Source: a virus
IMG/VR virus record: IMGVR_UViG_3300035670_000105
Span: 26,163 to 90,162 of that record
DNA: 64,000 nt
Reading direction: 5' to 3' (one strand)
Shown: positions 11,921-49,141 of the stretch, one piece after another
How the letters are laid out: every line of letters begins with the position of its first letter
Position numbering within the stretch: position 1 is the first letter of the stretch
Notes under the pieces: model-generated
Databases searched by the model: none
What the model saw: only the letters and a program-made list of their open reading frames with translations
Told to the model about the DNA's origin: nothing
Program-made: the position numbers and the translations under genes

Positions 11921-12112
11921 CTACACAGCAACTTCACTGCGAACCTTGGCCGATGGCGGCTGCTTCCAGGCCTCGGTTGACACCAGCCGCCGCAGATCCG
12001 GCCCCTCATCCGGGTTGCCGTCATGGCCGAACGCCTCACCGGCAAAGCGCGGCACATAGCGCCGGCGAGCCCCCCTGTTCGCGGACTGCTGCTGCTTCAT
12101 CACGCGCTCCAA
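11921..12112 (-). CDS. Small hypothetical protein (RFAG motif)
   Basis: Coupled to the upstream gene. Confidence 0.4.
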   Translation of the reverse strand: MERVMKQQQSANRGARRRYVPRFAGEAFGHDGNPDEGPDLRRLVSTEAWKQPPSAKVRSEVAV

Positions 12113-12939
12113 TGACGAACCTGTGCATCACGCACCTGGGGCAAGGACACCCCATAGGCCCTTTGCCAGGACAGTGTTCCCGCCTTCGCCATCTCGGGAT
12201 CCACCTGCGGCAAAGGCCCCACCTGCACGCCACCCAGCGCGCCGCGGCTCACCGGCTTGAACGAGCCATCCGGCAGCGATGCAGCCGGTGGCGTCGGCGG
12301 CGGCAGGCTCGCCAGCGGTGCATTCACCCCCGCCGCCGCCAGCATCGGCGCCGCCAGCTTCGGGTTGGCCGCGGCCCATTGCTTCATGTCCTCCCGCTCC
12401 CAGTACGCCGCACTCATCGGATCCCGGCTCCGCCCCGGATCCCCCGCAGCCGCCCTCCAGTCCGCCGCCGCCGCCGCCAGGGGCGGACTCGATTCCTGGG
12501 TGGCTGTGGTGGGGGCAGCTCCCGGGGCGGGGGTGGCATTGCCCGGGTTGGGCAGTGCCATCGCGTAGCTGCCATCCGGCTGCTTCCACCGGCCCGTTCC
12601 CAGGTACTCCAGCTGCTGCGCGTTCAGGCCTGGGCGGTCCTTGCGTTTGGCCAGGTGCACATGCGTGCCATGGCCCGCATCGCCAGGACCAAGCACCTCA
12701 TCGAACGTGCCCAGCTCACGCGCCCTCTGCATCAGGCGCTTCGTGCGCTCCTGCCAATGCAGCGATGGCCCGCCTTCGTACTCGGGCCCTTCATCGGCGC
12801 GGTGATCGGTGACATCGATCGCCTCGTCGTGGTAGTGGTACGAGTTCTCGGCATGCTTGCCGACAGGGCCAAACGCCTTGTGCTGCCCGACGCGCAGGCC
12901 GTAACCCTGCAGCGCCTTCCCGATGTCAACGATCGGCAT
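12100..12939 (-). CDS. Peptidase M15-like (LAS family) peptidoglycan hydrolase domain plus low-complexity tail
   Basis: HAENSYHY...AIDV...GHGTHVH zinc-ligand pattern. Confidence 0.65.
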   Translation of the reverse strand: MPIVDIGKALQGYGLRVGQHKAFGPVGKHAENSYHYHDEAIDVTDHRADEGPEYEGGPSLHWQERTKRLMQRARELGTFDEVLGPGDAGHGTHVHLAKRKDRPGLNAQQLEYLGTGRWKQPDGSYAMALPNPGNATPAPGAAPTTATQESSPPLAAAAADWRAAAGDPGRSRDPMSAAYWEREDMKQWAAANPKLAAPMLAAAGVNAPLASLPPPTPPAASLPDGSFKPVSRGALGGVQVGPLPQVDPEMAKAGTLSWQRAYGVSLPQVRDAQVRHWSA

Positions 12940-13255
12940 CGCTCTCCTCCTCTTCGCACTCGGCTGTGTCGATCAAGCCGTCGTTGAGGAGCACATCGAA
13001 GGGCAGAAACCCTTCTGGGTACGCCACTTCCAGCTGGATGTCCATCGCCTGCAGGTGCTGGCGCACCACCTCCCTCTCCACCAGCCAGCCCCGCCATGTC
13101 GCCACCAGCACATGGCGCAGCTCCTCCTCATCCAACTCGTCGATCTGCAGTTCGACGCTGCGCAGCAACAGCTGGGCTGTTGGTGGCAGCAGTTCATCCA
13201 ACCAGGGACCGACACCCGTGGCGTCATCACCAAAGGGAACCGATTGCAGCTCCAT
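12926..13255 (-). CDS. Hypothetical acidic protein
   Basis: ATG 13255 lies 20 nt after the CCTACCCTC motif. Confidence 0.6.
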   Translation of the reverse strand: MELQSVPFGDDATGVGPWLDELLPPTAQLLLRSVELQIDELDEEELRHVLVATWRGWLVEREVVRQHLQAMDIQLEVAYPEGFLPFDVLLNDGLIDTAECEEEESDADR

Positions 13256-13362
13256 GGACAGTGCGCTGTTGGCCTGAGGGTAGGGAAGGTGGCAACTGAA
13301 GTTGTTGCTTTTCACGCCTGTTCCATTCACCCTGTCGACTACAACGCCTTTGACACACACCG

Positions 13363-14253
13363 GTGTCCACCGACTTTCTCAGTCGCACCGCCGCCCGCTA
13401 CCCCCTGCTGCGCCCCGACGAGGAAATCGAGCTGGGGCGCCAGATTCGCGCCTGGCAGGATCATCCTGACGGCCCGGACCAAGCCCCTGCTGCAGTGCAA
13501 CGACGGGGCAGGCGAGCGCAGGATCGCTTCCTCCTCTGCAACCTTCGCCTCGCGCACTACATCGCCCGCCGCTTCAACAATCGCGGTGTGCCGATGGAGG
13601 ATCTCGTCCAGTCCGCCACCGAAGGGCTGCTGCAGGCCGTACGCCGCTTTGAGCCGGCCAATGGCTTTCGCTTCTCCAGCTATGCGGTGTGGTGGGCGCA
13701 GCAGAGCTGCCAGATCGCCGTCGCCACGCAGGGCGGCGCCCTCAGGCTTCCCACCACCGTCAGCGAGGGATTGCGGCGTGTCGCCCGCGCTGGCGCTCGC
13801 CTGCGCGCTGAACTGAACCGCCCACCAACCGACGCCGAGATTGAAGAAGCGGCCAACCTCAAGCCCGGCCAGCTGCGCAATCTCCGCGCTGCCGCCAGGG
13901 CGGCGGACACCCGCTCCCTGCATGACCACGCCAGGCAGGGGGGCGGCTCCGATCCCAGCAGTGGAGACGCCACCTGGCTCGATCTCCTCGCTGACGACGA
14001 CCAGCACGCCAAGGAGCTGGAGCAGCGCGATCTCAACCGCAGCCTGCGTCAGCTGATTGAAACCACGCCCACTCTCACTCCCCAGCAGCGGGAGGTGCTG
14101 CGATGCCGTTACCTGACCCCCACGCCACTGACCCATGTGCAGATCGCCTCGCGGCTGAACATCAACCGGGACACCTGCCGCAGGCTGGAGCGCAGCGCCC
14201 TGACCGTGCTCAAGGCGCGGGGGGTGCGGATCCGGGTCTTCCTGCCGAGCTGA
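13363..14253 (+). CDS. Phage-encoded RNA polymerase sigma70 factor (RpoD/SigA-like, lacking region 1.1)
   Basis: RYPLLRPDEEIELGR (1.2), NLRLA, DLVQ...GLLQAVRRFEP..GFRFSSYAVWW (region 2), region 4 HTH. Confidence 0.93.
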   Translation: MSTDFLSRTAARYPLLRPDEEIELGRQIRAWQDHPDGPDQAPAAVQRRGRRAQDRFLLCNLRLAHYIARRFNNRGVPMEDLVQSATEGLLQAVRRFEPANGFRFSSYAVWWAQQSCQIAVATQGGALRLPTTVSEGLRRVARAGARLRAELNRPPTDAEIEEAANLKPGQLRNLRAAARAADTRSLHDHARQGGGSDPSSGDATWLDLLADDDQHAKELEQRDLNRSLRQLIETTPTLTPQQREVLRCRYLTPTPLTHVQIASRLNINRDTCRRLERSALTVLKARGVRIRVFLPS

Positions 14254-14613
14254 TTCAACCCCTGGAACTGCTGTTGCTGGCTGCCCCGCATGGGCAATGG
14301 CAAGGCGCTGCGTGCAGCTACGGCCTGGTACTGGAAGTGCTCAGCCTCAGTGAGCGGGCCCTGCGTCAGAGCGGGCTGCACACCAGTGCCGGCCAGCTGG
14401 AGGCCCTGGCGCGGGAGTTTCGCCGCCAGCGGCGCAGCCCACTGCTGATGGGCGATCTACCGCCACAGCGGCAACGGCAGATCGATGCGCTTCCCGTCCG
14501 CGAGCCACGCCAGCGGCGGCGGCGGCTGCCGCGCATCAAACCGCAGTAGCGCACGGGCGGTTGTGCCAATGACCGCTCCGCCTGTTAGCTTTGCGTGCAG
14601 TTGCCCTCCTGCC

Positions 14614-14835
14614 GTGCCCGCCCGCCGCGCCACCCGCAGCGCCACCTGGGCCACCACATCCCAGTTGGCGGAAGAGATCGGCGTCTCCACTCGCACCATC
14701 CAACGGCTGCTCAGCCGCGGCCTCTTTCAACCCCAGGTGCACTGGCGGCCCATCAATCCCCTGATGGAGCACAGCCCCCGGCTGTGGCATCGGCAGCGTG
14801 TGGCCCAACTGCTCTGGAGCACTCATGAATCCTGA
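14614..14835 (+). CDS. HTH DNA-binding protein, candidate excisionase
   Basis: WATTSQLAEEIGVSTRTIQRL; start uncertain. Confidence 0.55.
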   Translation: MPARRATRSATWATTSQLAEEIGVSTRTIQRLLSRGLFQPQVHWRPINPLMEHSPRLWHRQRVAQLLWSTHES

Positions 14836-15130
14836 TCCGGCGCTGCTCGCCGACGACCGGTCCCGCGTCCTGCAGCTCGCTGCGCTACCTGCGCCGGACG
14901 AGCTGGCCTTGATTGACGCAGCGCGGCTGCTGATGCGCTACAGCCTGGAGGGATTCGGCAGTGATCTCCACCATCAACTGCAGGCGGTGATCGAGCACTG
15001 GGGGCTGACACGCCTGCAACTGCACGAGCGCACCCGGGCGCTCTGGGCCTCTGGTTGGCGACCCCGTCAGGATCCCGCCCAGCAGCTGGATGGCGTCAGC
15101 ATCGGCTCTGGCGCTGATGTCGGAGGTTGA
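14825..15130 (+). CDS. DUF3288-like cyanobacterial protein
   Basis: LIDAARLLMRY...WGLTRLQLHERTRALWASGWRP...GSGAD. Confidence 0.75.
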   Translation: MNPDPALLADDRSRVLQLAALPAPDELALIDAARLLMRYSLEGFGSDLHHQLQAVIEHWGLTRLQLHERTRALWASGWRPRQDPAQQLDGVSIGSGADVGG

Positions 15131-15132
15131 CG

Positions 15133-15552
15133 ATGACTGAACCGAACCTCCGTGCGCTGTGCGCTGAGCTGTTGAGCGCTATGGATAAGCTTTATAGGCA
15201 GTCCGTGACAACTCCGTATTCTCAGACGATTGAAATTGACGGCATTCGACACGCAATCCCTATCGGGAAAGATATTCTTGCTCAGGATGCTGTTTATGCG
15301 GACTTGATGGACCGCGCCCGCGCCATACTGGCCCAGCCCGAGCTGCAGGGGCCAAGTGATGAAGCAATCATGCGACTTGCATGTATTTCGCTTGGCTATG
15401 AGTACACTCCATCTCTGCTCTCCAGTCCAGAAAACGACATTGGAGCACTGGACGCATTGCCCTCGGAGTTGCTGGCCTTCGCCCGCGCCGTCCTGCAACG
15501 CTTTGGCCGCCCCGACATTGAGCCGGTGGCGCAGCAGCAGGAGGTGGAGTGA
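15133..15552 (+). CDS. Modular array protein, type A
   Basis: LRALCAEL...RARAILAQPELQG...FGRPDIEPV. Confidence 0.75.
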   Translation: MTEPNLRALCAELLSAMDKLYRQSVTTPYSQTIEIDGIRHAIPIGKDILAQDAVYADLMDRARAILAQPELQGPSDEAIMRLACISLGYEYTPSLLSSPENDIGALDALPSELLAFARAVLQRFGRPDIEPVAQQQEVE

Positions 15553-16304
15553 TGAGCACTGACTGGAAGGCGCTTTGCGCTGAGCTGGTACTACAGATGG
15601 ATGCGATGGATGACTCTCGCCATTGGGACGACTCTCTTTATGAACGCGCCTGCGCCGCCCTGGCCCAGCCCGAGCCGCAGGGGGCGACGGATGAGGAGTT
15701 GGATACCTTTTTTCAGCAATGGAGAGATGTCAATACAGATGCTGAAAGCTGGTTGACTGATGAACAAGAGCGTCGCCTTGCCCGCGACCTGTTCGCCCGC
15801 TACGGACTGGCCCAGTCCGAGCCGCAGGGAGTGAGGCAAGAAGCAGTCCTGGACTGGCTGCGTAACGACGAAGCCTGGGGAACGATTGTCGCGCCGAAAA
15901 GCTGGCGAGCCCAAGATGACAAACTTTTGAACCTTCTACTACGAGCCATCGCTCATTTTGGCCGCGCCGCCATCAAGCCGGTGCCTGTCGCTGAGCGGTT
16001 GCCAGAACCCCACACGAAAGTCATCGCCCACTATCTGAACGATCTCGGAAATTCTCGGACCATTCTTGCTGAGTGGGTGCCAGCAAAGTCACGGACCGAT
16101 GACTGCTTAGTGGATGACGACTTTGCCGAATACGACGAAGAAGCCGATGAATACTATTGGCCGGAAGGCTGGTATGAAAGCATTGAGAACTGGGATGATT
16201 ACGGGGCTGTGTTTGTTCACGAAGGCATGATTACGCACTGGCAGCCGCTTCCGCGTGGGCCCCACTACGCCCTGCCGGTGTCGCAGCAGCAGGAGGTGAA
16301 GTAA
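15552..16304 (+). CDS. Modular array protein, type A with DUF551-like C-terminus
   Basis: WKALCAEL, AQPEPQG, PVAERLP...ITHWQPLP. Confidence 0.75.
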   Translation: MSTDWKALCAELVLQMDAMDDSRHWDDSLYERACAALAQPEPQGATDEELDTFFQQWRDVNTDAESWLTDEQERRLARDLFARYGLAQSEPQGVRQEAVLDWLRNDEAWGTIVAPKSWRAQDDKLLNLLLRAIAHFGRAAIKPVPVAERLPEPHTKVIAHYLNDLGNSRTILAEWVPAKSRTDDCLVDDDFAEYDEEADEYYWPEGWYESIENWDDYGAVFVHEGMITHWQPLPRGPHYALPVSQQQEVK

Positions 16305-16822
16305 TGAGCACTGACTGGAAGACGTCTTGCCGCCCTGAGTGCTTCGATTTTGCCCTAGATGTTGTTGGCGATCCTGAGGCAACAGAGTTGCGGCTCTACG
16401 TTGAAGCGCTAGAGGCCCGTTGCACCGCCGTAGCCCAGCCTAAGCCGCAGGGGGCGACGCTTGATGACATTGTGGAGCTGTGCGCCGAACACGAATTCAT
16501 GCTTGGCGTTGACGGTGCCAATGAGGACGAGAGTGCCGAAGGGCTTTTGGAAATCGCCTGCGCCGTCCTCGCCCGCTGGGGGCGCCCCGTCATTGAGCCG
16601 GTGCCTGTCACTGAGCGGTTGCCGGGAGAGGGAGATAAAAACGAGGAGGGTGAAGTATGGGTTGAAGAACCGGGCTATTCGCATTCGCTTGCGGACACAG
16701 GTGACTACGACTGGGAGCCACACCGCTATGTCCTACGTGATATTCAAGACCGAGACCATCGCCGTAACCATCGCTGGGTTCCCCACTGGGCCCTGCCGGT
16801 GCCGCAGCAGGAGGTGGAGTGA
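16304..16822 (+). CDS. Modular array protein, type A
   Basis: MSTDWK, AQPKPQG, GRPVIEPVPVTERLP, PHWALPVPQQEVE. Confidence 0.75.
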   Translation: MSTDWKTSCRPECFDFALDVVGDPEATELRLYVEALEARCTAVAQPKPQGATLDDIVELCAEHEFMLGVDGANEDESAEGLLEIACAVLARWGRPVIEPVPVTERLPGEGDKNEEGEVWVEEPGYSHSLADTGDYDWEPHRYVLRDIQDRDHRRNHRWVPHWALPVPQQEVE

Positions 16823-16866
16823 TGACTGACACTTTCCGTGCGCTATGCGATGAGGAGGAGAACTAA
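16822..16866 (+). pseudogene. Truncated type-A module remnant (MTDTFRALCDEEEN*)
   Basis: Follows the junction repeat and SD; matches the RALC N-terminal module but stops after 14 codons. Confidence 0.6.
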
Positions 16867-17405
16867 TGGCTGAGGACATTGACCTGGTCCGCACGATGGA
16901 CTCACGGACGTGGGCCGCTGAGTTCATGCGAATTACGGGCGGCGCGATTGACGAGCAGACCATGATCTCTTGGTTTGCCAACGCAATCATGTGCGGCTGG
17001 GATCATCACTACTGGCAGTCCGACGAGTACAAGCAAGCGGTGGCGAGTGCGCTGCAGCCGGAGCTGGTGCAGGAGTGGCGAGCAGCAGTAGGAGGTGGAG
17101 TGATGACACCTCTCTCACCAGAAGCTCAGGCTGTGCTGGATGCGCTCACGCAAAAAGAATACGGCCTAGATCCTGCGGACATTCCAAATGAAGCTCGGCG
17201 CCTGGCCTGTATAGCCGCCGCCGTATTGCGTGAGGCTGCGGATCAGGTGGTGCCAGAGCTTGGCAGGCCCCGCACGGCAGACGAGCGCACTTTGTACCAC
17301 GAAGGACGGCTTGATGCGGTCATTCGACACAGGCAGCATCTCCTCACCATCGCCGCCGAGCTGGAGCAGGTGGCAAATATCAACACTACGGAGGCAGCAT
17401 CATGA
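16866..17405 (+). CDS. Chimeric array protein (unique N-terminus fused in frame to a type-B gene starting at ATG 17103)
   Basis: Internal junction repeat with SD and ATG at 17082-17106. Confidence 0.7.
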   Translation: MAEDIDLVRTMDSRTWAAEFMRITGGAIDEQTMISWFANAIMCGWDHHYWQSDEYKQAVASALQPELVQEWRAAVGGGVMTPLSPEAQAVLDALTQKEYGLDPADIPNEARRLACIAAAVLREAADQVVPELGRPRTADERTLYHEGRLDAVIRHRQHLLTIAAELEQVANINTTEAAS

Positions 17406-17740
17406 GCAACGAACACCTGATCACCCCGCCGCCAGAACTGAGGCGGGAATGGCGCGAAAAGGCCACTGAAGCCGGGCTCGTTGACGAGGAAATCTTCGCC
17501 GCTTTCTCTATCCAATGGGGAGCCGACCAGGAACTGAAGGCGTGCTGTGAGTGGCTCATCGCTTGGGACACCTGCGAAGGTGAGAAACTTGCTTCTCTTT
17601 TGCGCGAAGGACGCCGCCCGCAGCCGCCGAGTTTGAAGGAGCAGGCACTGGAAGCTCAGCAACGCATGGGGGACGGAGGTTGCACACATGAGGACTGGCA
17701 GCTTGTCCGCCGCGCACTGGAGGCTCTGCCCAATGACTGA
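17402..17740 (+). CDS. Modular array protein, type C
   Basis: EHLITPPPEL...QWGADQELKAC...PPSLKEQAL...ALEALPND. Confidence 0.75.
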   Translation: MSNEHLITPPPELRREWREKATEAGLVDEEIFAAFSIQWGADQELKACCEWLIAWDTCEGEKLASLLREGRRPQPPSLKEQALEAQQRMGDGGCTHEDWQLVRRALEALPND

Positions 17741-18020
17741 CCTATCACCCGCTGCCCAGGCGATAAAGGATGCCGTGCTTGCGCTCTATGCCGATGAAAT
17801 GGTTCACAAGTTCGGATGGCAGCTTGACGCGCCCACTGTTGCTGCCGCCCTGCGAGCTGCTGCAGATCAGGTGGTGCCGGAGCAGGCGCTTGAAGACGTG
17901 CCTGGTCGCTTTGTCAAGGGCTGCTGCCACGCCCGACTGCAGGACACACGCGCCGAACTTCTCGCCATCGCCGCCGAGCTGGAGCAGGCGGCTTCCAACA
18001 ACATTACGGAGAAACCATGA
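17733..18020 (+). CDS. Modular array protein, type B
   Basis: LSPAAQA...AAALRAAADQVVPE...LLAIAAELEQ. Confidence 0.75.
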   Translation: MTDLSPAAQAIKDAVLALYADEMVHKFGWQLDAPTVAAALRAAADQVVPEQALEDVPGRFVKGCCHARLQDTRAELLAIAAELEQAASNNITEKP

Positions 18021-18415
18021 ACACTGAACACCCGATCACCCCGCCGCCGGAGCTGGTGCAGCAGTGGCGAGCAGCAGCCAGCAACGTGCCAGCAACGTAC
18101 TTCTGTGAGGGAGTTCGCTTTGACTACATCGACTACATCGCCACCCGCGCCGCCCAATGGGGTGCCGACCAAGAGCTGGAGGCGTGCCGCATGGAGATCA
18201 TAGATGGAGCAGGACGTGCCTACATCAATGAAACTTGCAATCGCGTTTGCTTGGCCGATGACATTTGGTCCGCCCGACGCCCCAAGCCGCCGAGCTTGAA
18301 GGAGCAGGCACTAGCCGTGCTACCAGAAAGGCTTGGTAGTGGATTCATGGCAACAATCAACGACAAGGAACTTGACATCCTCCGCCGTGCTATCGAGGCC
18401 CTGCCCAATGACTGA
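18017..18415 (+). CDS. Modular array protein, type C
   Basis: EHPITPPPELVQQWR...QWGADQELEAC...PPSLKEQAL...AIEALPND. Confidence 0.75.
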   Translation: MNTEHPITPPPELVQQWRAAASNVPATYFCEGVRFDYIDYIATRAAQWGADQELEACRMEIIDGAGRAYINETCNRVCLADDIWSARRPKPPSLKEQALAVLPERLGSGFMATINDKELDILRRAIEALPND

Positions 18416-18842
18416 CTCAAAGCAACAACACCGCGCCACGCCTGAGCAGTGGGCGAGTATTGACGACCCAGAGAATCCATTTGCCTACGAGGTTTGCATC
18501 CTCGAATTGCGCGACCGCATCGCAGCGCTGGAAGCAGGGCAAACCTGCCCGCACATCGTCACCAGCGACGAAGGGACCAGCTACTGCGCGTTGGCCGAGC
18601 AGACGCATTCCAAGCCAACTCCTAATGATCGCCAAATTAGGAGTTCGCCTGACCATTTTGAGCAGGTCAACAAAATGGTCACCAGCTCGCTGGTGGAGCG
18701 GGTTCAGAGTGCGATAAGTGATGTGGAGTTTCCGCATGGCACCGACGAAGCCCGCGCCGCGATTCGTGAGGTGGCGGCTTGGATACGGGAGCGCGGTTGG
18801 GACTTGGGAGCCCGAGCGCTGGAGCGGGAGGCCGAGGGATGA
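18408..18842 (+). CDS. Hypothetical array-associated protein
   Basis: Starts in the shared CCCAATGACTGAC junction. Confidence 0.7.
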   Translation: MTDSKQQHRATPEQWASIDDPENPFAYEVCILELRDRIAALEAGQTCPHIVTSDEGTSYCALAEQTHSKPTPNDRQIRSSPDHFEQVNKMVTSSLVERVQSAISDVEFPHGTDEARAAIREVAAWIRERGWDLGARALEREAEG

Positions 18843-19588
18843 TCACTGACGCCGACTTCCAGGTTCTCGCCGCCAACAATCGCGTTCCAGCGCTTGACCT
18901 CGCTCAGGTCTTCAGTGCTGGCGAACGCCAGAAACGAATTGACAGCTGGATGACTCAGCTGGAGCAACTCGGCGTCCTGACCGGCTACGACCGCAACGTG
19001 CTTCAGCAGTGGCAAGATGCCGGCTATCCAGGTGCACGCCCCCAGCTGTCGATCGAGATCAACGCTCCCTACAGAGAACAGGACGAAGAAAAGCAACAGA
19101 CCGCTGCTCAGCGACTAATTCGACAAGAGCAGCGCATGCTTGACGAATGGCTTAGACATGGGCAATTACGCACCGAAGTAGAACAAGAACAGCGCCTGCT
19201 GCGGCACTACCCCATCTCTTATCCCGCTTTCATCCGGCGTCAACAGGAACTGGAGCAAGCTCGCAAGGAAGCACTTCGCGCCCAACTCATCGCCGACCGC
19301 GAACGTCAAAAAGCTGAACAACTGGAAAGAGAAGCGCTTGAGTCCCTCAAGCGGCAAATGGAAGAAGATCGCAGGCAGCTCACCGCAAGGGTCGAGGCTT
19401 ACGTCGAAGACCCGCTGGGCAGCACCTTCGACCTGACCGAAGGCGAGTTCACCCACTGGTGCGACGAGATCGCCACCCCTGAGCAACTGGATGCGCTCAC
19501 CAATGCCTTGGCAGCCCGTGGCCGCTACAACGCGCTGCCACCCTGGCAGCGCTGGTTGCTCACGCGCCTTGCTCCCTTACTCGCCTAG
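18839..19588 (+). CDS. Hypothetical coiled-coil protein
   Basis: ATGA overlap; Q/E/R-rich. Confidence 0.65.
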   Translation: MITDADFQVLAANNRVPALDLAQVFSAGERQKRIDSWMTQLEQLGVLTGYDRNVLQQWQDAGYPGARPQLSIEINAPYREQDEEKQQTAAQRLIRQEQRMLDEWLRHGQLRTEVEQEQRLLRHYPISYPAFIRRQQELEQARKEALRAQLIADRERQKAEQLEREALESLKRQMEEDRRQLTARVEAYVEDPLGSTFDLTEGEFTHWCDEIATPEQLDALTNALAARGRYNALPPWQRWLLTRLAPLLA

Positions 19589-20934
19589 TCGCTGCTCCCG
19601 CCCGAACCCAGCAGCTGCTGCAGTGCTGCCATCTGCAACCGCAACTGCTCCAGCTCCTGCCTCTCCCCATCAGCCAACACATCACGCCGCGCTGCGTCAA
19701 ACTGCTGCTGCTGGTGGCGGCGCATTCGACCTGGCGGCAGCCATCGCAGGTAGATGCGCTGATGCACCTCCCAGCTGTGCCCAAGCCATGCCGCTTGCTG
19801 CTCTGGATCCACGCCGGCCGTCTCAGCACTGGTGGCGCAGCGGATCGCATAGCTGTGCCGCAAGTCATACGGCCGCAGCCAATCCACACCCTCTCCCTCC
19901 GCCACTGGCGCCACCAATCGCTGCACGCCGCGCAGGGTGAACTGCTTGCGCAGGTACTGACCCAACTCAGCATTGTTCACCGGAATCATCACTCCGCCGC
20001 GCTGCTCCCATCTGATCGGCCAACGCTCCAGCAACTGGCCGCGGCGCCAGGGCCATTGCTCCGCCAGTCGGTAGCGCTGCAGCCAGCGGCCTGGCACCGG
20101 CGGCGCAAAGTGCGCCCTGGCGGATTTGGTGCGCATCTCACCCGGGATCGTCACCCATCCCCTCGCATCCACCCCCTCGATGTGCCACAGCTCATGCGGG
20201 CGGATGCCATAGGTGGCTGCCACGGCGAACACCCACTGGTTGAAGCCGTCCAACCCATCCAGCCATGCCTCGATCGCGCTGTCGCTGGGCACCAGCCGCA
20301 CCCGTAGCCCCTGGGCTGCAGCCAGTCGCACCGCCGCACCTCGCGGCCGGCGATTGCGCAGCTCGGCCAGCACTGGCGGCAGAGCCAGCTCAGGCGCAAC
20401 CCGATCGATCCAGCTGAGCACTTCCAGCCTGCGGTTGTAACTGCGCCGCTGCTCCAACGGATCCACCTGCCGGGCCCATTCACCCAGGGCCTGCGCCGAT
20501 GGCACGCCCTGGAGCTGGGCGATCCGCAGCCGCAGATCGTTGAGCAGATGCACCCGGCTGCCCTGCTTCGGGATCGCCTTGATCACCTCCGCACTCACCT
20601 GCTCCGCCAGCACCTGCCAGCTGCTGCCGCCACTGGAGCGCTGCTGAGGCCGTGGCTGCGGCCAGCCCTTCTGCTTCACCGCCAGCAGGCACAGCTCCGC
20701 CGCGGCCGTGATGTCCTCGCTGCGATCACAGCGCAGGGGGGCCAACGAGAACCGCTCCACCGTCATCCCCACCTCCATCCGCCGCACCCAGAGATGGGGC
20801 GAATCGCGGCGGCGCCACAACCGCCAGGGGCTGCCGGCCGCCTGTAACCGGCGCAGCGCCAGTAACCAGTGCGCCTCCACCTCCCCATCACCCCATCCCG
20901 CCTGTCTTGCCTGTGATGACGGATGAGACGACAT
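19585..20934 (-). CDS. int: Tyrosine integrase (cyanobacterial type)
   Basis: Catalytic set YGIRPHE, TKS, YDLRHSYAIR, LGHS..VH..IY; adjacent to attP; start approximate. Confidence 0.9.
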   Translation of the reverse strand: MSSHPSSQARQAGWGDGEVEAHWLLALRRLQAAGSPWRLWRRRDSPHLWVRRMEVGMTVERFSLAPLRCDRSEDITAAAELCLLAVKQKGWPQPRPQQRSSGGSSWQVLAEQVSAEVIKAIPKQGSRVHLLNDLRLRIAQLQGVPSAQALGEWARQVDPLEQRRSYNRRLEVLSWIDRVAPELALPPVLAELRNRRPRGAAVRLAAAQGLRVRLVPSDSAIEAWLDGLDGFNQWVFAVAATYGIRPHELWHIEGVDARGWVTIPGEMRTKSARAHFAPPVPGRWLQRYRLAEQWPWRRGQLLERWPIRWEQRGGVMIPVNNAELGQYLRKQFTLRGVQRLVAPVAEGEGVDWLRPYDLRHSYAIRCATSAETAGVDPEQQAAWLGHSWEVHQRIYLRWLPPGRMRRHQQQQFDAARRDVLADGERQELEQLRLQMAALQQLLGSGGSSD

Positions 20935-21043
20935 TCCATGCACGCTGGCGTGCACGAATCCTGCCGCATCCGGTCCATCTCTGTCCCTGTCTGTCACCCG
21001 TTGGACAGGCGGGAAGATCGGTGAGACGCCAGTGCTGGCCAAT

Positions 21044-21068
21044 AAAAAACCCCGCCGGAGCGGGGTTT
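21044..21068 (-). terminator. Intrinsic terminator downstream of the tRNA fragment
   Basis: Minus strand AAACCCCGC-TCCG-GCGGGGTTTTTT. Confidence 0.85.
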
Positions 21069-21075
21069 GTGAGAA

Positions 21076-21117
21076 TGGCTCGGGGGAGACTTGAACTCCC
21101 GACCTTGGGGTTATGAA
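21076..21117 (-). other. attP core: 3' half of tRNA-Met(CAT), anticodon loop to discriminator
   Basis: Minus strand TTCATAACCCCAAGGTCGGGAGTTCAAGTCTCCCCCGAGCCA with T-arm GGGAG-TTCAAGT-CTCCC; no 5' half upstream. Confidence 0.88.
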
Positions 21118-21198
21118 CCCATCGACAAACCCCTGAGAAACCCCTGCTATCACAGGCTTCTCCATGCACGCCCCGCAGGCTGCCGTGCACGCCGGCTC

Positions 21199-21408
21199 TC
21201 AGTTCTCCTCCAACAGCAACCGGAACACCGTCAGCAGGCAGCTCTCCAGCAGTGCCTGCTGCAGGGCAGCCAGGCTGCACTCACCGCGGCGGTAGCGGCC
21301 CAGCGCGCCCTGCACATCGAGCAGCAACACCTCAGCCACCTCAGCCCCCTGAAACCCCTGCCGCTTCACCTGCTGCCGCCAGCGCAGTGGAATGATCCGC
21401 TTCCACAT
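21199..21408 (-). CDS. Small hypothetical protein
   Basis: ATG just after the lysin stop. Confidence 0.4.
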   Translation of the reverse strand: MWKRIIPLRWRQQVKRQGFQGAEVAEVLLLDVQGALGRYRRGECSLAALQQALLESCLLTVFRLLLEEN

Positions 21409-21413
21409 CGTCC

Positions 21414-22616
21414 TCAGCCCCCATCCACCAAGAAGCGATGCACCCACATCCCGCCGCGGTTCAGATCCAGCGTGTTGCTCAGGTACACCCGGGCCGCGTC
21501 CGCAGCGCTGCTGCCTGCCACGCACGCGGCGTAGATGCACTGATCGCTGTAGAACCCATCGAAGAACTTCTCTGGACCGCGATACCGCCAGCTCTGCGCG
21601 TAGAACTCCCCCCAGGGATCCTTGACATCGAAGTCGTGACGCTTGCCGCCATCACGGCTCTTCAGTCCATCCAGCGCAATCACGTGGCCGCTCACCGTGA
21701 ACCAACCATGGGTGATCAGGAACTCACCAGCCTTCAGCCATTCACAGCACATGGCCAGCGATGCGCTGGCCTCGTAGCGGTAGGGCCTCCTGTAGCTGCG
21801 GATCACCGCGGCCATCACGCCAGGGCTGCCGGCTGAGCTGCCCTGCCGCTTAGCCTCCGCATCCAGCTTGCGGCGAATGCCCAGCACATCGGGATCGCCC
21901 ACCGCCATGCCGATCGCCGCGGCCTGACAGGTGCGGCTGTCGGGCTGGCTGATGTTCAAGGCCTTGATCGCCGTCACCCACTGCGTTCGCTCTGCCGGCT
22001 TCACCGCTGGCAAAGGTGGTGGCAGGGGGGCGTGTTGATCCATCAACGCCACGAGCTTGCTCGCGTAGGCCGGATCGGTGGCATACCCCTCCAGCACCAG
22101 CAATCGCGCCGCCTCCTTGCGATCCGCAGCGCGGTTCACCCCATGCCAGCGCTTGCCTTCGCTGCTGGTGTAATCGCGGTACCAGCGATCCACCAGATAC
22201 TTCACTGCCGCGTCCAGGCTCTCAAAGTCCTTGAACTCAGCGCGGATGGCCACCGGCTTGCCGTTCAGCACCTCTGTCGTGTTCTTCCAGGTGCCAGTGC
22301 CCTTCAGCCCGAACGGATTGTTCCTCCCTGAGAAGCTCTGGCCATGCCCGCTCTCCAGTGCCCACTGCGCTGCCACCAGCTCAGGGAACGCCGCCCCATG
22401 CCGCTGCGCCGCATGTGCGATCCCGCCCCAGCTATTACCCGCCACTTGGCTGCCACCCATCTCACCTTTGACCGGTGGCTCGGCGCGGAACATCTCCAGG
22501 AACTCCTCCTGCTGCTGCTTGCTCAGCAGTGTCCACGCCCAGTTCCACGCCGCATCCTGATGCGGCAACCGCTTCTCCCGATCTGTGTACCGCGCTGCAC
22601 TGAGAAAATCGGGCAC
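21414..22616 (-). CDS. Endolysin: GH73 glucosaminidase plus C39-like peptidase domain
   Basis: AQWALESGHG...NNPFGLKG...GYATDPAY; Q..SRTC...GHVIALDG...DPWG; GTG start 20 nt after the promoter motif. Confidence 0.88.
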   Translation of the reverse strand: MPDFLSAARYTDREKRLPHQDAAWNWAWTLLSKQQQEEFLEMFRAEPPVKGEMGGSQVAGNSWGGIAHAAQRHGAAFPELVAAQWALESGHGQSFSGRNNPFGLKGTGTWKNTTEVLNGKPVAIRAEFKDFESLDAAVKYLVDRWYRDYTSSEGKRWHGVNRAADRKEAARLLVLEGYATDPAYASKLVALMDQHAPLPPPLPAVKPAERTQWVTAIKALNISQPDSRTCQAAAIGMAVGDPDVLGIRRKLDAEAKRQGSSAGSPGVMAAVIRSYRRPYRYEASASLAMCCEWLKAGEFLITHGWFTVSGHVIALDGLKSRDGGKRHDFDVKDPWGEFYAQSWRYRGPEKFFDGFYSDQCIYAACVAGSSAADAARVYLSNTLDLNRGGMWVHRFLVDGG

Positions 22617-28913: not shown

Positions 28914-31900
28914 TCAGGCGATGCGATAGGTGATGAAGGTGTTGGCGGCAGTCTTGCGGGTCAGGAAGCGACCGCTGCTGTTGGCAGCAACGACCATGTT
29001 GCCGACGACTGTGTGCCCGGTGTTCTGCACCACCGTGATGGCGTGAGTGGCAGCTGCGAGGTTGACGACACTCCATTCAAACGACTGTTCTGTCTGCAGC
29101 TCCTGGAAGGCCGCATCCATGTTGGTGCCAGTGGGCAGGGTGTAGTTAATGGCTGCCGCTGGTGTACCGGTGCGCAGTCCATCCAGCATGGATGCTGCGG
29201 TGATCGTGACACTGGTGTTTGATGCGGCAGCAGCAGTGTTGTATGTGACGGTAGTGCCGCTGCGAACATCCCCGGCGAAGTAATTCGGGGCGGTGCCAGC
29301 GGCGTAGAAGTTCCAGCGGCCTGTGGTTGAACTGAGATTGCCGTAGAAGCCGTAGTTGTCGGTTGCTTGCGTGAGGTTGGCGTTCGCATGAAAGCCGATC
29401 TGAGTCGTGATTGTCGATCCGGCGCCCTTGGTTTGACCGGTTGCATGGAAGTGCTGGAGGCTTGGAAGTGTGAATGTTGCAGCGGCGGTAGTTAGTTGGG
29501 TGACGTAGCCATAGGCGGCGGCTGTTACATCGCTTTGAACCGTAGATACAGTGAAATTGGCATAAGAAGTAGTGCCACCCGTGATTGCCCCTTGGTTGTA
29601 AAGCGTGACAGTTGCAGCGCCCCCACCTCCAATCGCAACATTGCCATCCCCACGGACGCGAATCCGCTCGGTGCCGGCAGTGCTGATTCCGATGGTGTCC
29701 CCCGCAGGGCGGAAGAACCCAGTGTTCTCATCGCCGTCCCAGGTAAAGCCAGGAGCGCCAGCCGTGTCGGCGCCGATGCCTTGGATTTGGCCATTGAACC
29801 GAGCGCTTCCGGCGACATACAGAAGATCGCCGGTATCACTGGTGCTGCCAATTCCCACGCGCCCAGCAAAGTAGTTGGGGGCATCGCCATCCATGTAGGT
29901 GTTCCAGCAACCCGCATTCGCCGGCAAGGTCGCCCTGAAGGCGTAGTTGCTGACGCCACCAACCATCGTGGAGTCAACCCTGAAGCCATGCTGGCCAGTA
30001 ACTACTGAGCCAGCTCCAAACGTTGTTTGCGACGCTCGGTAGTGGTCGAGGTTGACCACCGTAAAAGCTGCTGCCGCCGTGCCGAGCAATGTTCGGTAGC
30101 CATAAGCCGTGGCTGTTACATCGCTCTGAACTGTTGCAGTGGTGTAGTTGGCGTAAGCTGTTGTTGCGCCTGTAATTGGCCCCTGATTGCGGAAGGTTGA
30201 ATCGGCGCCGCCACTGCCCCCAATCGCAACATTCCCATCACTGCGGATCCGCATCCGCTCAACAGCGGTGCCGCTGCCTGCAGGGGTGGTGCTGAAGATC
30301 AGGCGACCGGGCATGACACCCGCACTCGGGGTGCCATCCACTTGACAGGTAATCTCGCCGGCCTTGATGAAGTTTGTGCCATCAGAGCCGACCCAATCGT
30401 GGACACCCAAACCAAAACCATTGGTGACAATCAAATGGGTGCCGATTGTCGTGCTTGCGCTTGCGGCTTGGCGCCAGACAGGTGTTGTACCGAAATGAGC
30501 CTGCGTGCTGATCCTGCCGTTATTGGCACCACCAGCTTGTATTTGGAATATCCCAACGGAGCCAGCCCCATCATTCAGTATGGTGCTACCACCAACAATC
30601 AGGCGTGCATTCGTGAAAATACCTCCGCTGCTTAGCGTGAGTCTCTCCGTGCCACCCGTCGCAATTCCAACCGTGTTCGCCGCTGGCAGGTAGAGCCCGT
30701 TAGCCGGAACCGTGGCACTGGTGGGGATGAAGCTGCCGGATGTAAATGTTCCTCCTGCCGTGATGTTGCCATCACTACCAATCCGCATCCGCTCCGTGAG
30801 CGTGTTCCCCGCACCACTCCCCGTCGTCCAGAAGGTCAGCGCCTGATCGGCACCAGTGGTATCCGCCACGGTGTTGGCGATCTTGGAGCGCACCATTGCT
30901 CCAGGGCCGTTGGCATCAGCGGAGAAGAACTCCAGCGCCGAGCTGTCGGTGTTGGCGGTGAAGGCGCCGCTGTAAGTGTCTCGCAGGCGGATGACGGGGC
31001 CTACGGTTGTTGAGGTCCCGGCCTTGGCAACTTCAAGGCTGACGCCTGGCGTCGTGATGCCGATGCCGACATTGCCGGCGAAGTAGTTATCGGCTGTACC
31101 ATTGGCGTAGAAGTTCCAACGACCAGCGGCTGAGGCCAGGTTGCTGTAGAAGCCGAAGTTGTTGGTGGCGTCTGTCAGGGTAGAAGCCGCTACAAAACCA
31201 TACTGATTAGTTATGGTTGAGCCGGCGCCTTTTGTAGTTGCGTTTGCAGAGAAGTGATGAATGTTTACAACGGTAAAAGCTGCTGCTGCAGTCGTGAGGC
31301 TAGTCGAGTAACCAAGCGCGGTTCCGGTTACATCGCTCTGCACGGAGCTGGCTGTCAGATTTGCGTATGCACTCGTCCCCCCTGAGATAGTTGTTTGGTT
31401 GTAAAGCCCCACGATGGCAGATCCCGTGCCTCCAATCCCGATATTCCCGTCACTGCGGATCCGCATCCGCTCCAATGGGCCATTGGCACCTTCCGGGGTA
31501 GTCCTGAAGCGAAGATCACCCGGCATTGCTGTGCCGGAAACCGTGCCAGCACAGAACCCTTGAATATCAGCAGCGCGAGTGAAGATCGTCCCGTTGGAGC
31601 CCTGGAACTGAAAAGAGCCAAGCAGGGTGCCGCTTATGACAGCCGTGTGTGCGCCAATCGTATCAGAATTGCTTTTTGCAACGACGAATGCCGGAGCAAC
31701 GGTTGTCAGGAATCCGTTGTAGAAACCGATTGCAGTGTTATGTGTAAAACCGCCAAAAGTTCCCGCCATTGTCCATCCGGCGGCTATATTGCCAAGATCA
31801 TTATCCGACCTGCTGATATTAATTACTGACGCCGAGTTGAGCCTTGCTGTGCCAATTGAATCAACAAACAGTCGGCCCACGCCACCCGTCGCAATCCCAA

Positions 31901-33203
31901 CCGTGTTCGCCGCCGGCAGGTAGAGCCCGTTGGTCGGAACCGTGGCGCTGGTAGGGATCAGGCTGGCGCCTGTGATCGTCCCCGTGGTGCTGACCGCCTG
32001 GCTGCCGAAATCAGGGCTGATCTTGGTGCCAGCGATGGCAGCCGTATCGCTGACATCGGCATTGACGATGGAGCCAGCAGCAATCGCAGTGGCGAAGCTG
32101 ATGTTGCCGCTGCCGGTCCAGCTACCGGATACACCAGTCACGTCCCCGGTGAGTGTGATCGTGCGGCCGGTGGCCCAGGCTGATGCCGTGGCGGCGTTGC
32201 CCGTGACAGAGATGCCCCAGGTGCCGGAGGCGTTCGTTCCCGTCGTGCTCGGGGCGCCCACCGTGTTGTAGCTGACGGTCAGAGCCGAGCCGCCATTGAA
32301 GGTGGAGCCGGAGGCGCCGCCAGAGCCAGCGCTGTTAAAGGTGAGGCCGTTGCCGGTGTTGGCGGTGATCGTGATATTGGCGCTGCCGTTGAAGCTGACG
32401 CCATTGATGTTGCGGGGCGTTTGCAGAGTGGTCGCTGTGCTCGCGTTACCGCTCAATGCGGCGGTGATTGTACCGGCCGAAAAATTGCCCGAGGCGTCGC
32501 GGGCCACGATTGCTGATGCCGTGTTGCTGCTGGCAGCGGTGGTGGCGCTGTTGGCCACCTTGCCGGCGGTGCTGATCGTCGCCAGCTTGCTGTCGGTAAT
32601 CCCCGCAGTGGCATTGATGTCGTCGTTGACGATGGCGCCGGGGGCGATCATCGCCGATGTCACCGTGCCGCTGTCAGCACTGGTGATGATGGTGCCGCTG
32701 CGGTCAGGGGCGATGAGCTGGCGGTTGCCGCTCAGCGCATCCGGCCGCAGCGTCACCCGATAGCTGCTGCTCCCACCAGCGCGGCCGGCGATGATGATTC
32801 CATCCTCAGCAGCGGTGTCGGTGCCAAAGATCTGACCGCTGCTATCCAGGAAGCTGTTGGCGCCTGTGAAGACGTTGTTGGCGCCGCTGCTGACATCGCC
32901 GAGGGTGGTGATGCTGTCAAGCTTGGTCTTGTCCGCTGCGCTCATCACCCCCGCCAGGGATGTCGTGGCGACAGGAAGCACCGCGTCATTCCCTGTGGCA
33001 CCGACCGTGACCGTGGTGCCATTGCGGCTGACGGTCAGATCAACACGCTTGTAGGGCAGGTCGCTCCATGCCGTGACACCATCGCCAACCTTCTGCAGCG
33101 TGGTGTCGCTTTCTGTTCCGATTTCACCGGCGCCCAGGATGGGATTGACGCTGCTCCAGTTGGCAGCGGTGTCAGTGCGCGGCAGGATCTGCCTGACTTC
33201 CAC
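28914..33203 (-). CDS. Long tail fibre protein
   Basis: N-terminal TAANWSSVNPILGAGEIGTESDT..KVGDGVTAWSDLPY; G/T/A/S-rich; ERMRIxSDGN-type repeats. Confidence 0.85.
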   Translation of the reverse strand: MEVRQILPRTDTAANWSSVNPILGAGEIGTESDTTLQKVGDGVTAWSDLPYKRVDLTVSRNGTTVTVGATGNDAVLPVATTSLAGVMSAADKTKLDSITTLGDVSSGANNVFTGANSFLDSSGQIFGTDTAAEDGIIIAGRAGGSSSYRVTLRPDALSGNRQLIAPDRSGTIITSADSGTVTSAMIAPGAIVNDDINATAGITDSKLATISTAGKVANSATTAASSNTASAIVARDASGNFSAGTITAALSGNASTATTLQTPRNINGVSFNGSANITITANTGNGLTFNSAGSGGASGSTFNGGSALTVSYNTVGAPSTTGTNASGTWGISVTGNAATASAWATGRTITLTGDVTGVSGSWTGSGNISFATAIAAGSIVNADVSDTAAIAGTKISPDFGSQAVSTTGTITGASLIPTSATVPTNGLYLPAANTVGIATGGVGRLFVDSIGTARLNSASVINISRSDNDLGNIAAGWTMAGTFGGFTHNTAIGFYNGFLTTVAPAFVVAKSNSDTIGAHTAVISGTLLGSFQFQGSNGTIFTRAADIQGFCAGTVSGTAMPGDLRFRTTPEGANGPLERMRIRSDGNIGIGGTGSAIVGLYNQTTISGGTSAYANLTASSVQSDVTGTALGYSTSLTTAAAAFTVVNIHHFSANATTKGAGSTITNQYGFVAASTLTDATNNFGFYSNLASAAGRWNFYANGTADNYFAGNVGIGITTPGVSLEVAKAGTSTTVGPVIRLRDTYSGAFTANTDSSALEFFSADANGPGAMVRSKIANTVADTTGADQALTFWTTGSGAGNTLTERMRIGSDGNITAGGTFTSGSFIPTSATVPANGLYLPAANTVGIATGGTERLTLSSGGIFTNARLIVGGSTILNDGAGSVGIFQIQAGGANNGRISTQAHFGTTPVWRQAASASTTIGTHLIVTNGFGLGVHDWVGSDGTNFIKAGEITCQVDGTPSAGVMPGRLIFSTTPAGSGTAVERMRIRSDGNVAIGGSGGADSTFRNQGPITGATTAYANYTTATVQSDVTATAYGYRTLLGTAAAAFTVVNLDHYRASQTTFGAGSVVTGQHGFRVDSTMVGGVSNYAFRATLPANAGCWNTYMDGDAPNYFAGRVGIGSTSDTGDLLYVAGSARFNGQIQGIGADTAGAPGFTWDGDENTGFFRPAGDTIGISTAGTERIRVRGDGNVAIGGGGAATVTLYNQGAITGGTTSYANFTVSTVQSDVTAAAYGYVTQLTTAAATFTLPSLQHFHATGQTKGAGSTITTQIGFHANANLTQATDNYGFYGNLSSTTGRWNFYAAGTAPNYFAGDVRSGTTVTYNTAAAASNTSVTITAASMLDGLRTGTPAAAINYTLPTGTNMDAAFQELQTEQSFEWSVVNLAAATHAITVVQNTGHTVVGNMVVAANSSGRFLTRKTAANTFITYRIA

Positions 33204-33226
33204 TTCGGCGCGTCTTCGTCTGAAGG

Positions 33227-33235
33227 GAGGGTATG
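33227..33235 (-). promoter_or_regulatory. CATACCCTC promoter motif
   Basis: 23 nt before the fibre start. Confidence 0.7.
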
Positions 33236-33242
33236 GAGCGGC

Positions 33243-33710
33243 TCAGGCCACCAAAGTGGCAATGCCGCGCAACAGCACCATCCGCTTCTCCGATGGATTG
33301 ATCTGCAGCAGATCCCAGTGGGTGACATCCGGCAGCAAGCCGATCCAGGCGGCGCCGCCACTGAGCGGTTCACTGGAGAACACCGTGGCTGCGCTGCCGC
33401 CGCTCAGTGGCGGCGGATCGCCGGTTTCGTCCGCGTTCCCGCCACTGATGGGCTCATCACTGGTGAGGATGCCGCGAGCAACGGCCGATGTGAGCTGCAG
33501 CGTCAACCCACCATTGCCGCCATCCACCACCGGCACCTCCAGATCGAGGTAGTGGGTGGAGCGATCCAGCGCCCACAGCTGGGCCAGGTAGCGATACCCC
33601 TGCAGCATGACCGCTGCTGAGCCACCATGACAGCGCAGCTGGATGTCCTGCAGGAAGCCGCTGTCCCTGGAGATCGGCAGGTCAAAGGTGGCTGGCGATG
33701 GTGTCGTCAT
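33243..33710 (-). CDS. Putative baseplate/fibre adaptor protein
   Basis: YLAQLW...GLTLQLT...WDLLQINP...LLRG pattern. Confidence 0.5.
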   Translation of the reverse strand: MTTPSPATFDLPISRDSGFLQDIQLRCHGGSAAVMLQGYRYLAQLWALDRSTHYLDLEVPVVDGGNGGLTLQLTSAVARGILTSDEPISGGNADETGDPPPLSGGSAATVFSSEPLSGGAAWIGLLPDVTHWDLLQINPSEKRMVLLRGIATLVA

Positions 33711-49129: not shown

Positions 49130-49141
49130 ATCAATCCACAA
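49130..49141 (-). CDS. Major capsid protein, exon 1 (TTG TGG ATT GAT = MWID)
   Basis: GGAGG SD at 49153-49157; joins in frame to SDFPK; spliced CDS is 1173 nt = 390 aa. Confidence 0.8.

Follow-up and report, generated by a model that had tools for sequence, protein, structure and literature searches.

The 64,000-nucleotide (nt) stretch analysed here, called the window below, corresponds to positions 26163-90162 of the 90,162-bp IMG/VR virus record IMGVR_UViG_3300035670_000105, which CheckV rates as complete. Our subject is an array of eight translationally coupled genes on its + strand at 15133-18842, which was delimited from the list of open reading frames (ORFs) and by reading of the sequence. 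The genes stand in the order A-A-A-(14-codon remnant)-X:B-C-B-C-D, and the start of each successive gene overlaps the preceding stop by 1, 4 or 8 nt. An initial annotation, made from the letters of the window alone, had described eight tightly coupled ORFs in this same order, and in this it proved right.

Genes and borders of the array

The members of the array, with one further coupled gene at its end, are as follows.

15133-15552, + strand: A1, an A-type N-module alone, ending past the '...IEPV' block with a QQQEVE tail and without a C-terminal module
15552-16304, + strand: A2, A-type, with an internal repeat of an AQPEPQG-type module and, at the C-terminal end, a DUF551 domain
16304-16822, + strand: A3, an A-type N-module with a C-terminal module bounded by ERLP and HWALPVP
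16822-16866, + strand: a 14-codon mini-ORF, a cut-down A-type 5' end (MTDTFRALC...) coupled on both sides
16866-17405, + strand: X:B1, made of X (amino acids 1-62), a C-type N-terminal motif fragment, an A-type 3' junction out of frame and a complete B gene (ATG at 17103)
17402-17740, + strand: C1, phrog_32006 (E 8.4e-19, profile positions 3-114 of 116)
17733-18020, + strand: B2, a member of the three-helix B family, placed by family alignments
18017-18415, + strand: C2, phrog_32006 (E 1.2e-23, profile positions 2-114 of 116)
18408-18842, + strand: D, a fourth family, with MTD..ATPEQW, LELRDRIAALEA, SLVERV and a C-terminal helix
18839-19588, + strand: E, the last coupled gene (ATGA overlap with D), charged, absent from the initial annotation

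Four families, all phage-specific, are represented in the row: A, B, C (phrog_32006) and D. In MAFFT alignments A2 and A3 are 43% and 35% identical to A1, the two B genes are 48% identical to each other and the two C genes 49%, and tblastn found no copies of the array paralogs elsewhere in the 90-kb record. Pfam has no family of its own for A, B or D and none for C. D matched nothing in Pfam or PHROG, and its family gave tblastn matches in 51 of the 251 related loci. E, for which Pfam returned nothing above the cut-off and PHROG nothing, is probably a coiled-coil protein. Neither E, nor the X part, nor the DUF3288 gene that precedes A1 had a tblastn match in these 251 loci.

The C-terminal part of the A genes is variable in kind. 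A DUF551 domain (PF04448) was detected in A2 at amino acids 147-238 (24.3 bits against a cut-off of 22, E 5.9e-05); it is absent from A1 and A3 at E<=0.1, A3 has no Pfam match, and A2 is the only one of the 19 A-type proteins aligned that carries the domain at E<=0.01. Among the A genes of the array, DUF551 is confined to A2. The C-terminal modules of A2 and A3 have only the bounding motifs ERLP and HWALPVP in common. Within A2, at 15780-15850, the third A-type block (ARxxxARxG) runs directly into a second AQxEPQG block, which looks like an internal duplication of the N-module by the joining of two different blocks. Repeated modules are also found in two related loci, L034 and L080.

The borders between the genes are themselves repeated. 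The A-type junction GCAGYAGGAGGTGRAGTRATGA occurs four times in the window (at 15534, 16286, 16804 and 17085) and the C-type junction CTGCCCAATGACTGAC twice (at 17726 and 18401); neither was found in any of 100 shuffles. Border repeats carrying stop and start, four of one kind and two of another, had been noted in the initial annotation, and the copies are exact.

15534-15555, + strand: A-type junction, copy 1, with the QQEVE tail, a Shine-Dalgarno-like GGAGG, stop and start
16286-16307, + strand: A-type junction, copy 2
16804-16825, + strand: A-type junction, copy 3, a direct repeat with copy 4 that brackets the 281-nt remnant and X insertion
17085-17106, + strand: A-type junction, copy 4, inside the X:B1 frame
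17726-17741, + strand: C-type junction, copy 1, in which the ...LPND stop overlaps the MTD start, ATGACTGA
18401-18416, + strand: C-type junction, copy 2, in which the ...LPND stop overlaps the MTD start, ATGACTGA

Between the third and fourth A-type copies lie 281 nt, which contain the remnant of an A-type 5' end, then X, which is unique, and a fragment of a C-type N-terminus. The remnant, now the mini-ORF, is recognisable from the 90% identity of 15149-15168 and 16835-16854 (repeat family D20), and the C-type fragment from the 94% identity of 17054-17088 and 18043-18077 in C2 (repeat family D6). The annotated fusion X:B does contain a B gene; what had to be revised is that it forms a single open frame, which runs through the fourth junction copy in a frame other than that of the A genes. 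In the related locus L176 and in abundant contigs of the same community, the A end is joined straight to the B start (contig joint 16824->17112).

The junction types are common to the families. Among the gene ends of relatives, the 8-nt overlap was found in 80 of 138 C and 37 of 134 B genes, ATGA in 29 and 52, and a TAG-TC-N-CACT spacer in 10 and 15, respectively. The start sits inside the end of the preceding gene, and for this reason A, B, C and D all begin with MT(D/E/N/Q). The order and number of the A, B, C and D genes vary among relatives: in 81 loci we found C alone 31 times, CB 9 times, CA 8 times and CC 6 times, as well as longer rows such as CCCCCC, DCBC and CBAAA. The genes of L176 are arranged as methylase-A-B-B-D, again with the QQEVE junction, and its D gene has the blocks of the window's D with different inserts.

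Two observations on junctions stand apart from the array. The spacer junction was seen in lower-GC relatives (L036 from 5358, L035 from 5322 and L049 from 6037) after A, B and C genes; it consists of the stop TAG, TC, about 5 bases, CACT, 4-9 bases and ATG, without a Shine-Dalgarno-like purine run. Two more ATGACTGA stop/start overlaps lie upstream of the window on the + strand, at 12042 and 12286 of the record (window -14121 and -13877), and none on the - strand; there may be a second row of coupled small genes at about 12042-12286 of the record.

No promoter-like site was found in 13000-21500 (mean of 1.1 in shuffles), and the sole + strand terminator-like site within the array lies inside A1, at 15369-15383. 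This weakly suggests that the array is likely to be read as a single transcript.

Conserved blocks and assortment of variable segments

Homologues were collected by scanning viral contigs, in which at least 597 of 613 candidate stretches were confirmed for C, at least 242 of 617 for B and 183 of 235 for A. When 98 C sequences, and 25 and then 134 B sequences, were aligned, the near-invariant columns coincided exactly with the peptide blocks named in the initial annotation, and the direct-repeat families of the window fall on the same blocks. The recurring blocks of types A, B and C are thus real and are motifs of whole families. They are 13-19 codons (39-57 nt) long, rich in Ala, Leu and Glu, and helical, and the variable cassettes between them have about 15-27 residues. 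In the predicted models of B2 (three helices, pLDDT 78.6) and C2 (five helices, pLDDT 79.7), the blocks lie inside helices and the variable parts extend over loops and helix ends. C2 matched only unnamed viral clusters in the ESM Atlas. A distant homology of B and C was considered and dismissed (hhalign probability 1.2%).

Base composition partly distinguishes blocks from inserts. The G+C content at third codon positions (GC3) of constant versus variable parts is 0.81 versus 0.55 in C2, 0.74 versus 0.57 in C1 and 0.65 versus 0.56 in B1; the lower-GC inserts of the initial annotation are thus present in these three genes and absent from B2 (0.65 versus 0.65). Family-wide, the values for blocks and variable parts are 0.73 versus 0.53 in C and 0.62 versus 0.54 in B. 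The array genes as a whole have a GC3 of 0.61-0.66, and most of their neighbours 0.75-0.85.

Each family was split by profile alignment into blocks and variable segments (V1, V2 and V3), and all pairs of genes were compared. A segment was taken as shared at an identity of >=0.6, and as the only one shared when the other segment was at <=0.25. Assortment was measured in this way for B, C and A, and judged by inspection for D. Among 134 unique B genes (8911 pairs), the mean identity was 0.71 in blocks, 0.17 in V1 and 0.185 in V2, and the two segments varied independently (Spearman 0.010): both were shared in 11 pairs, V1 only in 140 and V2 only in 151. The 64 by 64 segment clusters formed 125 combinations, with 19 four-gamete quartets. 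The 138 unique C genes behaved alike, with identities of 0.75 in blocks and 0.18-0.23 in variable segments, and Spearman coefficients of 0.003, 0.043 and -0.016. For the three pairings of C segments, both were shared in 7, 2 and 1 pairs, against only one in 46+71, 82+69 and 58+95, and all 138 combinations of V1, V2 and V3 were distinct. In A, 54 N-modules gave identities of 0.68 in blocks, 0.21 in V1 and 0.15 in V2 (Spearman -0.056), with both segments shared in 2 pairs, V1 only in 40 and V2 only in 14. The tail of the A genes past block 3 has <=15 amino acids in 29 of the 54 and >=45 in the remaining 25, with no intermediates; the C-terminal module is therefore itself a unit that is present or absent.

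The DNA around shared segments tells how much is exchanged at a time. Shared segments are 0.81-0.89 identical in DNA, whereas the other segments of the same gene pair are 0.44-0.51 identical. The 300-nt flanks on both sides stand at 0.52-0.54, which is the background of random pairs, with the adjoining blocks slightly raised. Because the flanks are at background, we consider that the exchanged units are short internal patches with crossovers in the blocks, rather than chromosome arms. Sequences of one segment type differ at many synonymous sites (pS 0.30-0.52) but at few non-synonymous ones (pN 0.055-0.098), and the segment types therefore appear to be old and constrained. Segment sharing within one contig was found in 1 of 44 pairs for B and 3 of 53 for C, compared with 330 of 8867 and 273 of 9400 between contigs. 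The set of segments in an array is non-redundant.

The genes of the window are themselves mosaics of this kind. V1 of B2 is 0.91 identical to that of L085 and L086, whose V2 is at 0.31, and V2 of B2 is 0.88 identical to that of L084, whose V1 is at 0.14. In C1, V2 is 0.82 identical to that of L003 and V3 is 0.72 identical to that of L004, the other segments being at <=0.29; in C2, V2 is 0.67 identical to that of L133, with V1 at 0.19 and V3 at 0.18. A2 and a gene of L176 are 94% identical in DNA over the first 155 nt of A2, which cover block 1, V1 and block 2, and then cannot be aligned until the next block. The middle of the C-terminal module of A3 resembles that of L061, and the segments of the N-module differ.

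The paralogs of the window are old. In the family alignment C1 and C2 are 0.44 identical, and each is nearer to genes of other phages (0.58 and 0.57). Identical residues of C1 and C2 are encoded by identical codons in 0.63 of cases, against 0.59 in 1741 similarly divergent between-phage pairs (sd 0.10; 39% of these pairs reach 0.63), and it is because this sharing is ordinary among between-phage pairs that we see no recent homogenisation within the genome. Identical codons do exceed the expectation from codon usage (32 versus 19.1 of 52 in C1/C2, 23 versus 14.6 of 41 in B1/B2 and 46 versus 26.3 of 65 in A2/A3). Recent gene conversion among the window paralogs was considered as the cause and rejected, because the excess is equal between phages and hence a property of the family.

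Origin of the mosaic pattern

We consider, with a probability of about 0.78, that the array is the product of population-level cassette shuffling of small helical accessory genes and not a built-in switching device. Crossovers inside the 13-19-codon blocks have repeatedly exchanged sub-gene patches, and crossovers at the standard stop/start junctions have swapped, duplicated, truncated or deleted whole genes with frame and coupling intact. The footprints of such events in the window are the mosaic genes B2, C1 and A2, A1, which is without the C-terminal module, the 14-codon A remnant, and X:B1, which is bracketed by two junction copies. The exchange would have taken place on an evolutionary time scale between relatives, either co-infecting or resident, through homologous recombination of a general or relaxed kind, and the machinery of this genome was probably not responsible for it. 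Reverse transcriptase (RT; PF00078) gave no match in the 90,162-bp record, while a control search found it in 3 of 14 genomes. Serine recombinase or resolvase (PF00239), RecT and ERF were likewise not found in the record, and a Pfam search of 65 further ORFs of the record revealed no recombination protein, most of them being without any family. As the record has no RT, serine recombinase, RecT or ERF, the exchanges are read as homologous recombination between related phages.

The initial annotation had proposed that blocks and borders act as recombination handles that keep frame and coupling, and it had expected different inserts between the same blocks in related loci. Both are borne out by the free assortment, the patches of DNA similarity, the mosaic B2, C1 and A2, the variable gene order, and the breakpoints among relatives, which are not uniformly collinear paralogs. 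The lack of a dedicated invertase or RT, which it had noted for the window, extends to the whole record. Its further proposal, a diversification system acting in this genome, was not supported: the paralogs are old, sharing within contigs is in no excess, shared segments are 81-89% identical, and contigs showed 0 differences.

Identical copies in two or more loci were found for 20 B and 16 C genes, and for 15 and 13 of these the contig names point to different datasets. Among these replicated genes and those of the window, discordant versus concordant sharing was 4 versus 0 in B, and 1 versus 1, 3 versus 0 and 4 versus 0 in C. In four runs of one study, independent k=31 contigs match the window's own sequence with 0 differences and tile the array; they span, for example, 16795-17762, with B1 and C1 whole, and 15655-16819. 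The blocks have a depth 10-100 times that of unique parts (in X3 up to 10,352 against about 115), and contigs end at them, so that many relatives with the same blocks and other inserts must live in the same community. There were also 86 contig joints, 15 of them listed, that could be taken as rearrangements of this phage; their sides are short (20-50 nt with 90% likeness), and we read them as other members of the families in the community.

That assemblers joined different phages at shared blocks, and so created the assortment, is an idea that draws on the >=90% identity of the blocks across many genomes of one sample, on the breaking of k=31 contigs there, and on the origin of nearly all homologues in short-read contigs. 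We find it extremely unlikely. Ordinary reads are longer than the blocks (39-57 nt), and should thus span a block and both of its neighbours. Moreover, discordant sharing persists among the 15 B and 13 C genes that are identical across datasets, independent contigs reproduce B1 and C1 whole, and shared segments have diverged at synonymous sites, none of which is expected of artificial joints. A programmed device within the genome, such as silent-cassette gene conversion, a diversity-generating retroelement (DGR), a shufflon or an unrecognised recombinase using the blocks, would account for the constant handles, variable cassettes, several copies and standard borders, which resemble antigenic-variation loci; the lower GC3 of the variable parts agrees with it, and the many ORFs of the record without a family leave room for an unrecognised enzyme. 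Even so, it is very unlikely, since the record has no RT, resolvase, RecT or ERF, the genes are all on one strand with weak inverted repeats, sharing is no commoner within contigs than between them, shared segments differ at 11-19% of their bases, and the own-sequence contigs of the four runs show 0 differences, though contigs drop rare variants.

To ordinary old tandem paralogs, with slow motifs, fast loops and no exchange at the blocks, we give the least probability of all. Their case is that C1 and C2 are only 0.44 identical and nearer to genes of other phages, that codon sharing is ordinary, and that the blocks are family-wide motifs. However, such descent predicts linked segments, whereas joint against single sharing was seen in 11 versus 291 pairs in B, and in 7 versus 117, 2 versus 151 and 1 versus 153 in C. 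The flanks of shared segments at background, the fall of A2 versus L176 from 94% to unalignable at a block, and the variation of gene order and copy number among relatives also speak against it.

Several points weigh against population-level shuffling or narrow its base. Short-read metagenome contigs supply almost all comparison sequences, and the subset in which replication rules out chimeras is small, with 17 and 15 genes. Duplicates were discarded only when exact, and related lineages therefore inflate the pair counts; the A set was chosen by a regular expression that missed A3; and pN is biased downward because the pairs behind pS and pN were picked at >=60% amino-acid identity. With a DNA identity of no more than 81-89% in shared segments, most of the exchanges are old. 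The segments of B1, V1 of C1, and V1 and V3 of C2 have no partner in any sampled gene. As to function, no Pfam family is available for B, C or D to point to one, Foldseek gave no match in the PDB at E<=0.001 (84 rows for C2 and 148 for B2 at E<=10), and a wide search with VIA-align 2 gave C2 a best Z of 6.0, generic helical and below the meaningful level for helical models. Finally, the host is deduced from no more than three isolates of Synechococcus phages, the DUF3288 gene and the titles of 4 of 12 metagenome-assembled genomes (MAGs).

Genomic setting, related systems and significance

The array lies in the lysogeny or early region of a temperate, cyanophage-like virus. Pfam and PHROG searches identified the following genes around it.

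near the array: a primase-helicase-like gene, a dCTP deaminase and a dNMP kinase
13363-14253: sigma-70 factor
14566-14835, + strand: excisionase-like helix-turn-helix gene 5' of the array (phrog_66, 'excisionase and transcriptional regulator', E 4.3e-05)
14798-15130, + strand: DUF3288 gene (PF11691, E 9.4e-12, 45.2 bits against a cut-off of 25)
19585-21165, - strand: tyrosine integrase (phrog_1, E 2.5e-08, amino acids 294-485)

The placing of the array between a candidate excisionase and an integrase, as given in the initial annotation, agrees with the phrog_66 gene on its 5' side, for which the Pfam MerR/HTH_17 matches were all under their cut-offs, and the phrog_1 gene on its 3' side. At the head of the array stands the DUF3288 gene, whose coupling to A1 is via GGAGG-N-ATG; its Pfam family is mostly cyanobacterial. 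An endolysin gene follows the integrase, and tail, head and terminase genes come further on, the tail genes at 28914-35845. The nearest isolates with a C-type gene are the Synechococcus phages S-CBS2, S-RIP1 and S-H1 (38-44% identity, 5 records), and in S-CBS2 the C-type gene likewise lies among small genes 3' of a sigma factor. An assignment of the host via cellular genomes was tried and abandoned as too unreliable, as confirmation was obtained for only 13 of 485 candidate stretches, which lay in 12 loci, each on a MAG contig, with mixed labels.

A tRNA-like 3' fragment lies on the - strand at about 21120-21076, with an anticodon-arm-like GGGTT-CATAA-CCCC, a T-arm and an acceptor end, and is followed by a strong terminator-like hairpin (21068-21047, - strand). 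ARAGORN found no whole tRNA at 21047-21120, and the fragment is probably an attachment-site copy of a host tRNA with a CAT anticodon. Because fragment and hairpin both sit within the first codons of the listed integrase ORF, this ORF probably begins too far upstream and the true start would be further downstream. Elsewhere, a group I intron (Rfam RF00028, 70.6 bits, full model) lies at 48787-49173 on the - strand amid genes of the structural region, and an ORF for a LAGLIDADG-type endonuclease (PF14528, E 1.8e-14) at 47107-48174 on the + strand, about 600 bases from the intron and on the opposite strand. At 20887-21972 of the record, 5' of the window (L163:7887-8972), an ArdC-like part (ArdcN, E 4.4e-18) is fused to a zincin metallopeptidase (MPTase-PolyVal, E 1.5e-32); this fusion is a candidate anti-restriction gene of the same phage.

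Several known systems resemble the array in part. The gp38 adhesins of T2/T6-type phages have hypervariable segments between conserved glycine-rich motifs, according to Trojet et al. (2011, PMC3157838). Conserved motifs between independently exchanged hypervariable segments occur here too, and on that source gp38 is the closest analogue with such a design, though only in architecture: gp38 is described there as a virion tail-fibre adhesin with known outer-membrane receptor targets, whereas the array encodes four unrelated, non-structural helical families in tandem. The array has no glycine-rich motifs and lies in the early/lysogeny region and not in a tail-fibre context; its proteins gave no adhesin match in Pfam or PHROG, and no relation to gp38 in sequence or fold was found. 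As regards whole genes, the PeSL cassettes come nearest; their short conserved border sequences, as described in 2010 (PMC2839356), mark a hyperplastic region of non-essential small genes with gain, loss and replacement of whole genes. The likeness is in the use of gene borders as recombination points. On the same source, PeSLs are intergenic promoter-plus-terminator elements, whereas the array borders are mostly spacerless overlaps (ATGACTGA, ATGA, TGATG) and exchange also occurs inside genes; no sigma-70-like promoter with a stem-loop terminator was found between the genes, which leave no intergenic space.

The exo-xis region of lambda and Stx phages, as presented in PMC10834534, consists of small non-essential early genes beside xis and int that are said to influence the lysis-lysogeny decision. 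One of these, ea22, is described there as a mosaic in which the C-terminal domains have been exchanged behind common N-terminal and coiled-coil parts; one of these domains, Ea22_V2, is DUF551, a 'portable domain'. The array, too, lies beside xis and int and has a DUF551 module in A2. By comparison with what that source describes, only A2 has this domain, no further exo-xis homology was detected, and the mosaic units of the array, at 15-27 residues, are much smaller and are reassorted in each of the three families measured. The array does not look like a DGR, in view of the lack of an RT, of variable segments that differ in length and cannot be aligned between copies, and of the absence from 14500-19500 of a near-identical long repeat pair of the template/variable kind. 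Nor does it look like a shufflon: no PF00239 was found, the genes are all on the + strand, the inverted repeats (14-27 nt, 75-89% complementary) are scattered, and the one tyrosine recombinase of the record is the integrase. In contrast to integron cassettes, the overlapping stop/start borders leave no room for an attC hairpin. The literature searched, whose coverage did not include subscription journals, yielded the gp38 and PeSL analogues, and nothing that described these families or such a pattern among early genes.

Modular shuffling itself is already known; what is notable here is its fine grain and that several families show it together. Descriptions of phage mosaicism usually concern genes or domains, whereas the patch exchanged here spans 15-27 residues and is flanked by blocks of 13-19 codons. 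Small-protein families that travel together although unrelated, at least three in number, have this design in common, with hundreds of viral-contig homologues for each of two and 183 for A. There is also a practical warning, in that the blocks break short-read assemblies and inflate local depth, and identity-based clustering mis-groups these genes.

Discrete, constrained segments that are re-dealt freely on a conserved scaffold are the signature of binding specificity under diversifying selection. We infer that the proteins are binding modules under such selection, serving host takeover, lysogeny control or counter-defence, with specificity set by the variable segments. This signature makes the array proteins strong candidates for such factors in picocyanobacterial phages, in which they are largely unknown. 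A bolder idea, which we regard as possible but doubtful, is that the arrays constitute a phage-borne combinatorial library of scaffolded binders, built on four unrelated helical scaffolds with 2-3 specificity segments each. Each segment would have a pool of types, at least 64-85 in this sample alone, and be re-dealt by recombination in the framework blocks, while the overlapping stop/start borders would let whole genes plug into and out of one operon. The non-redundant set of each phage would then be aimed at variable targets in the host or in rival phages, such as defence systems, regulators and superinfecting phages. If this is true, such a library would be the counterpart, among non-structural early proteins, of adhesin or antigen cassette systems.

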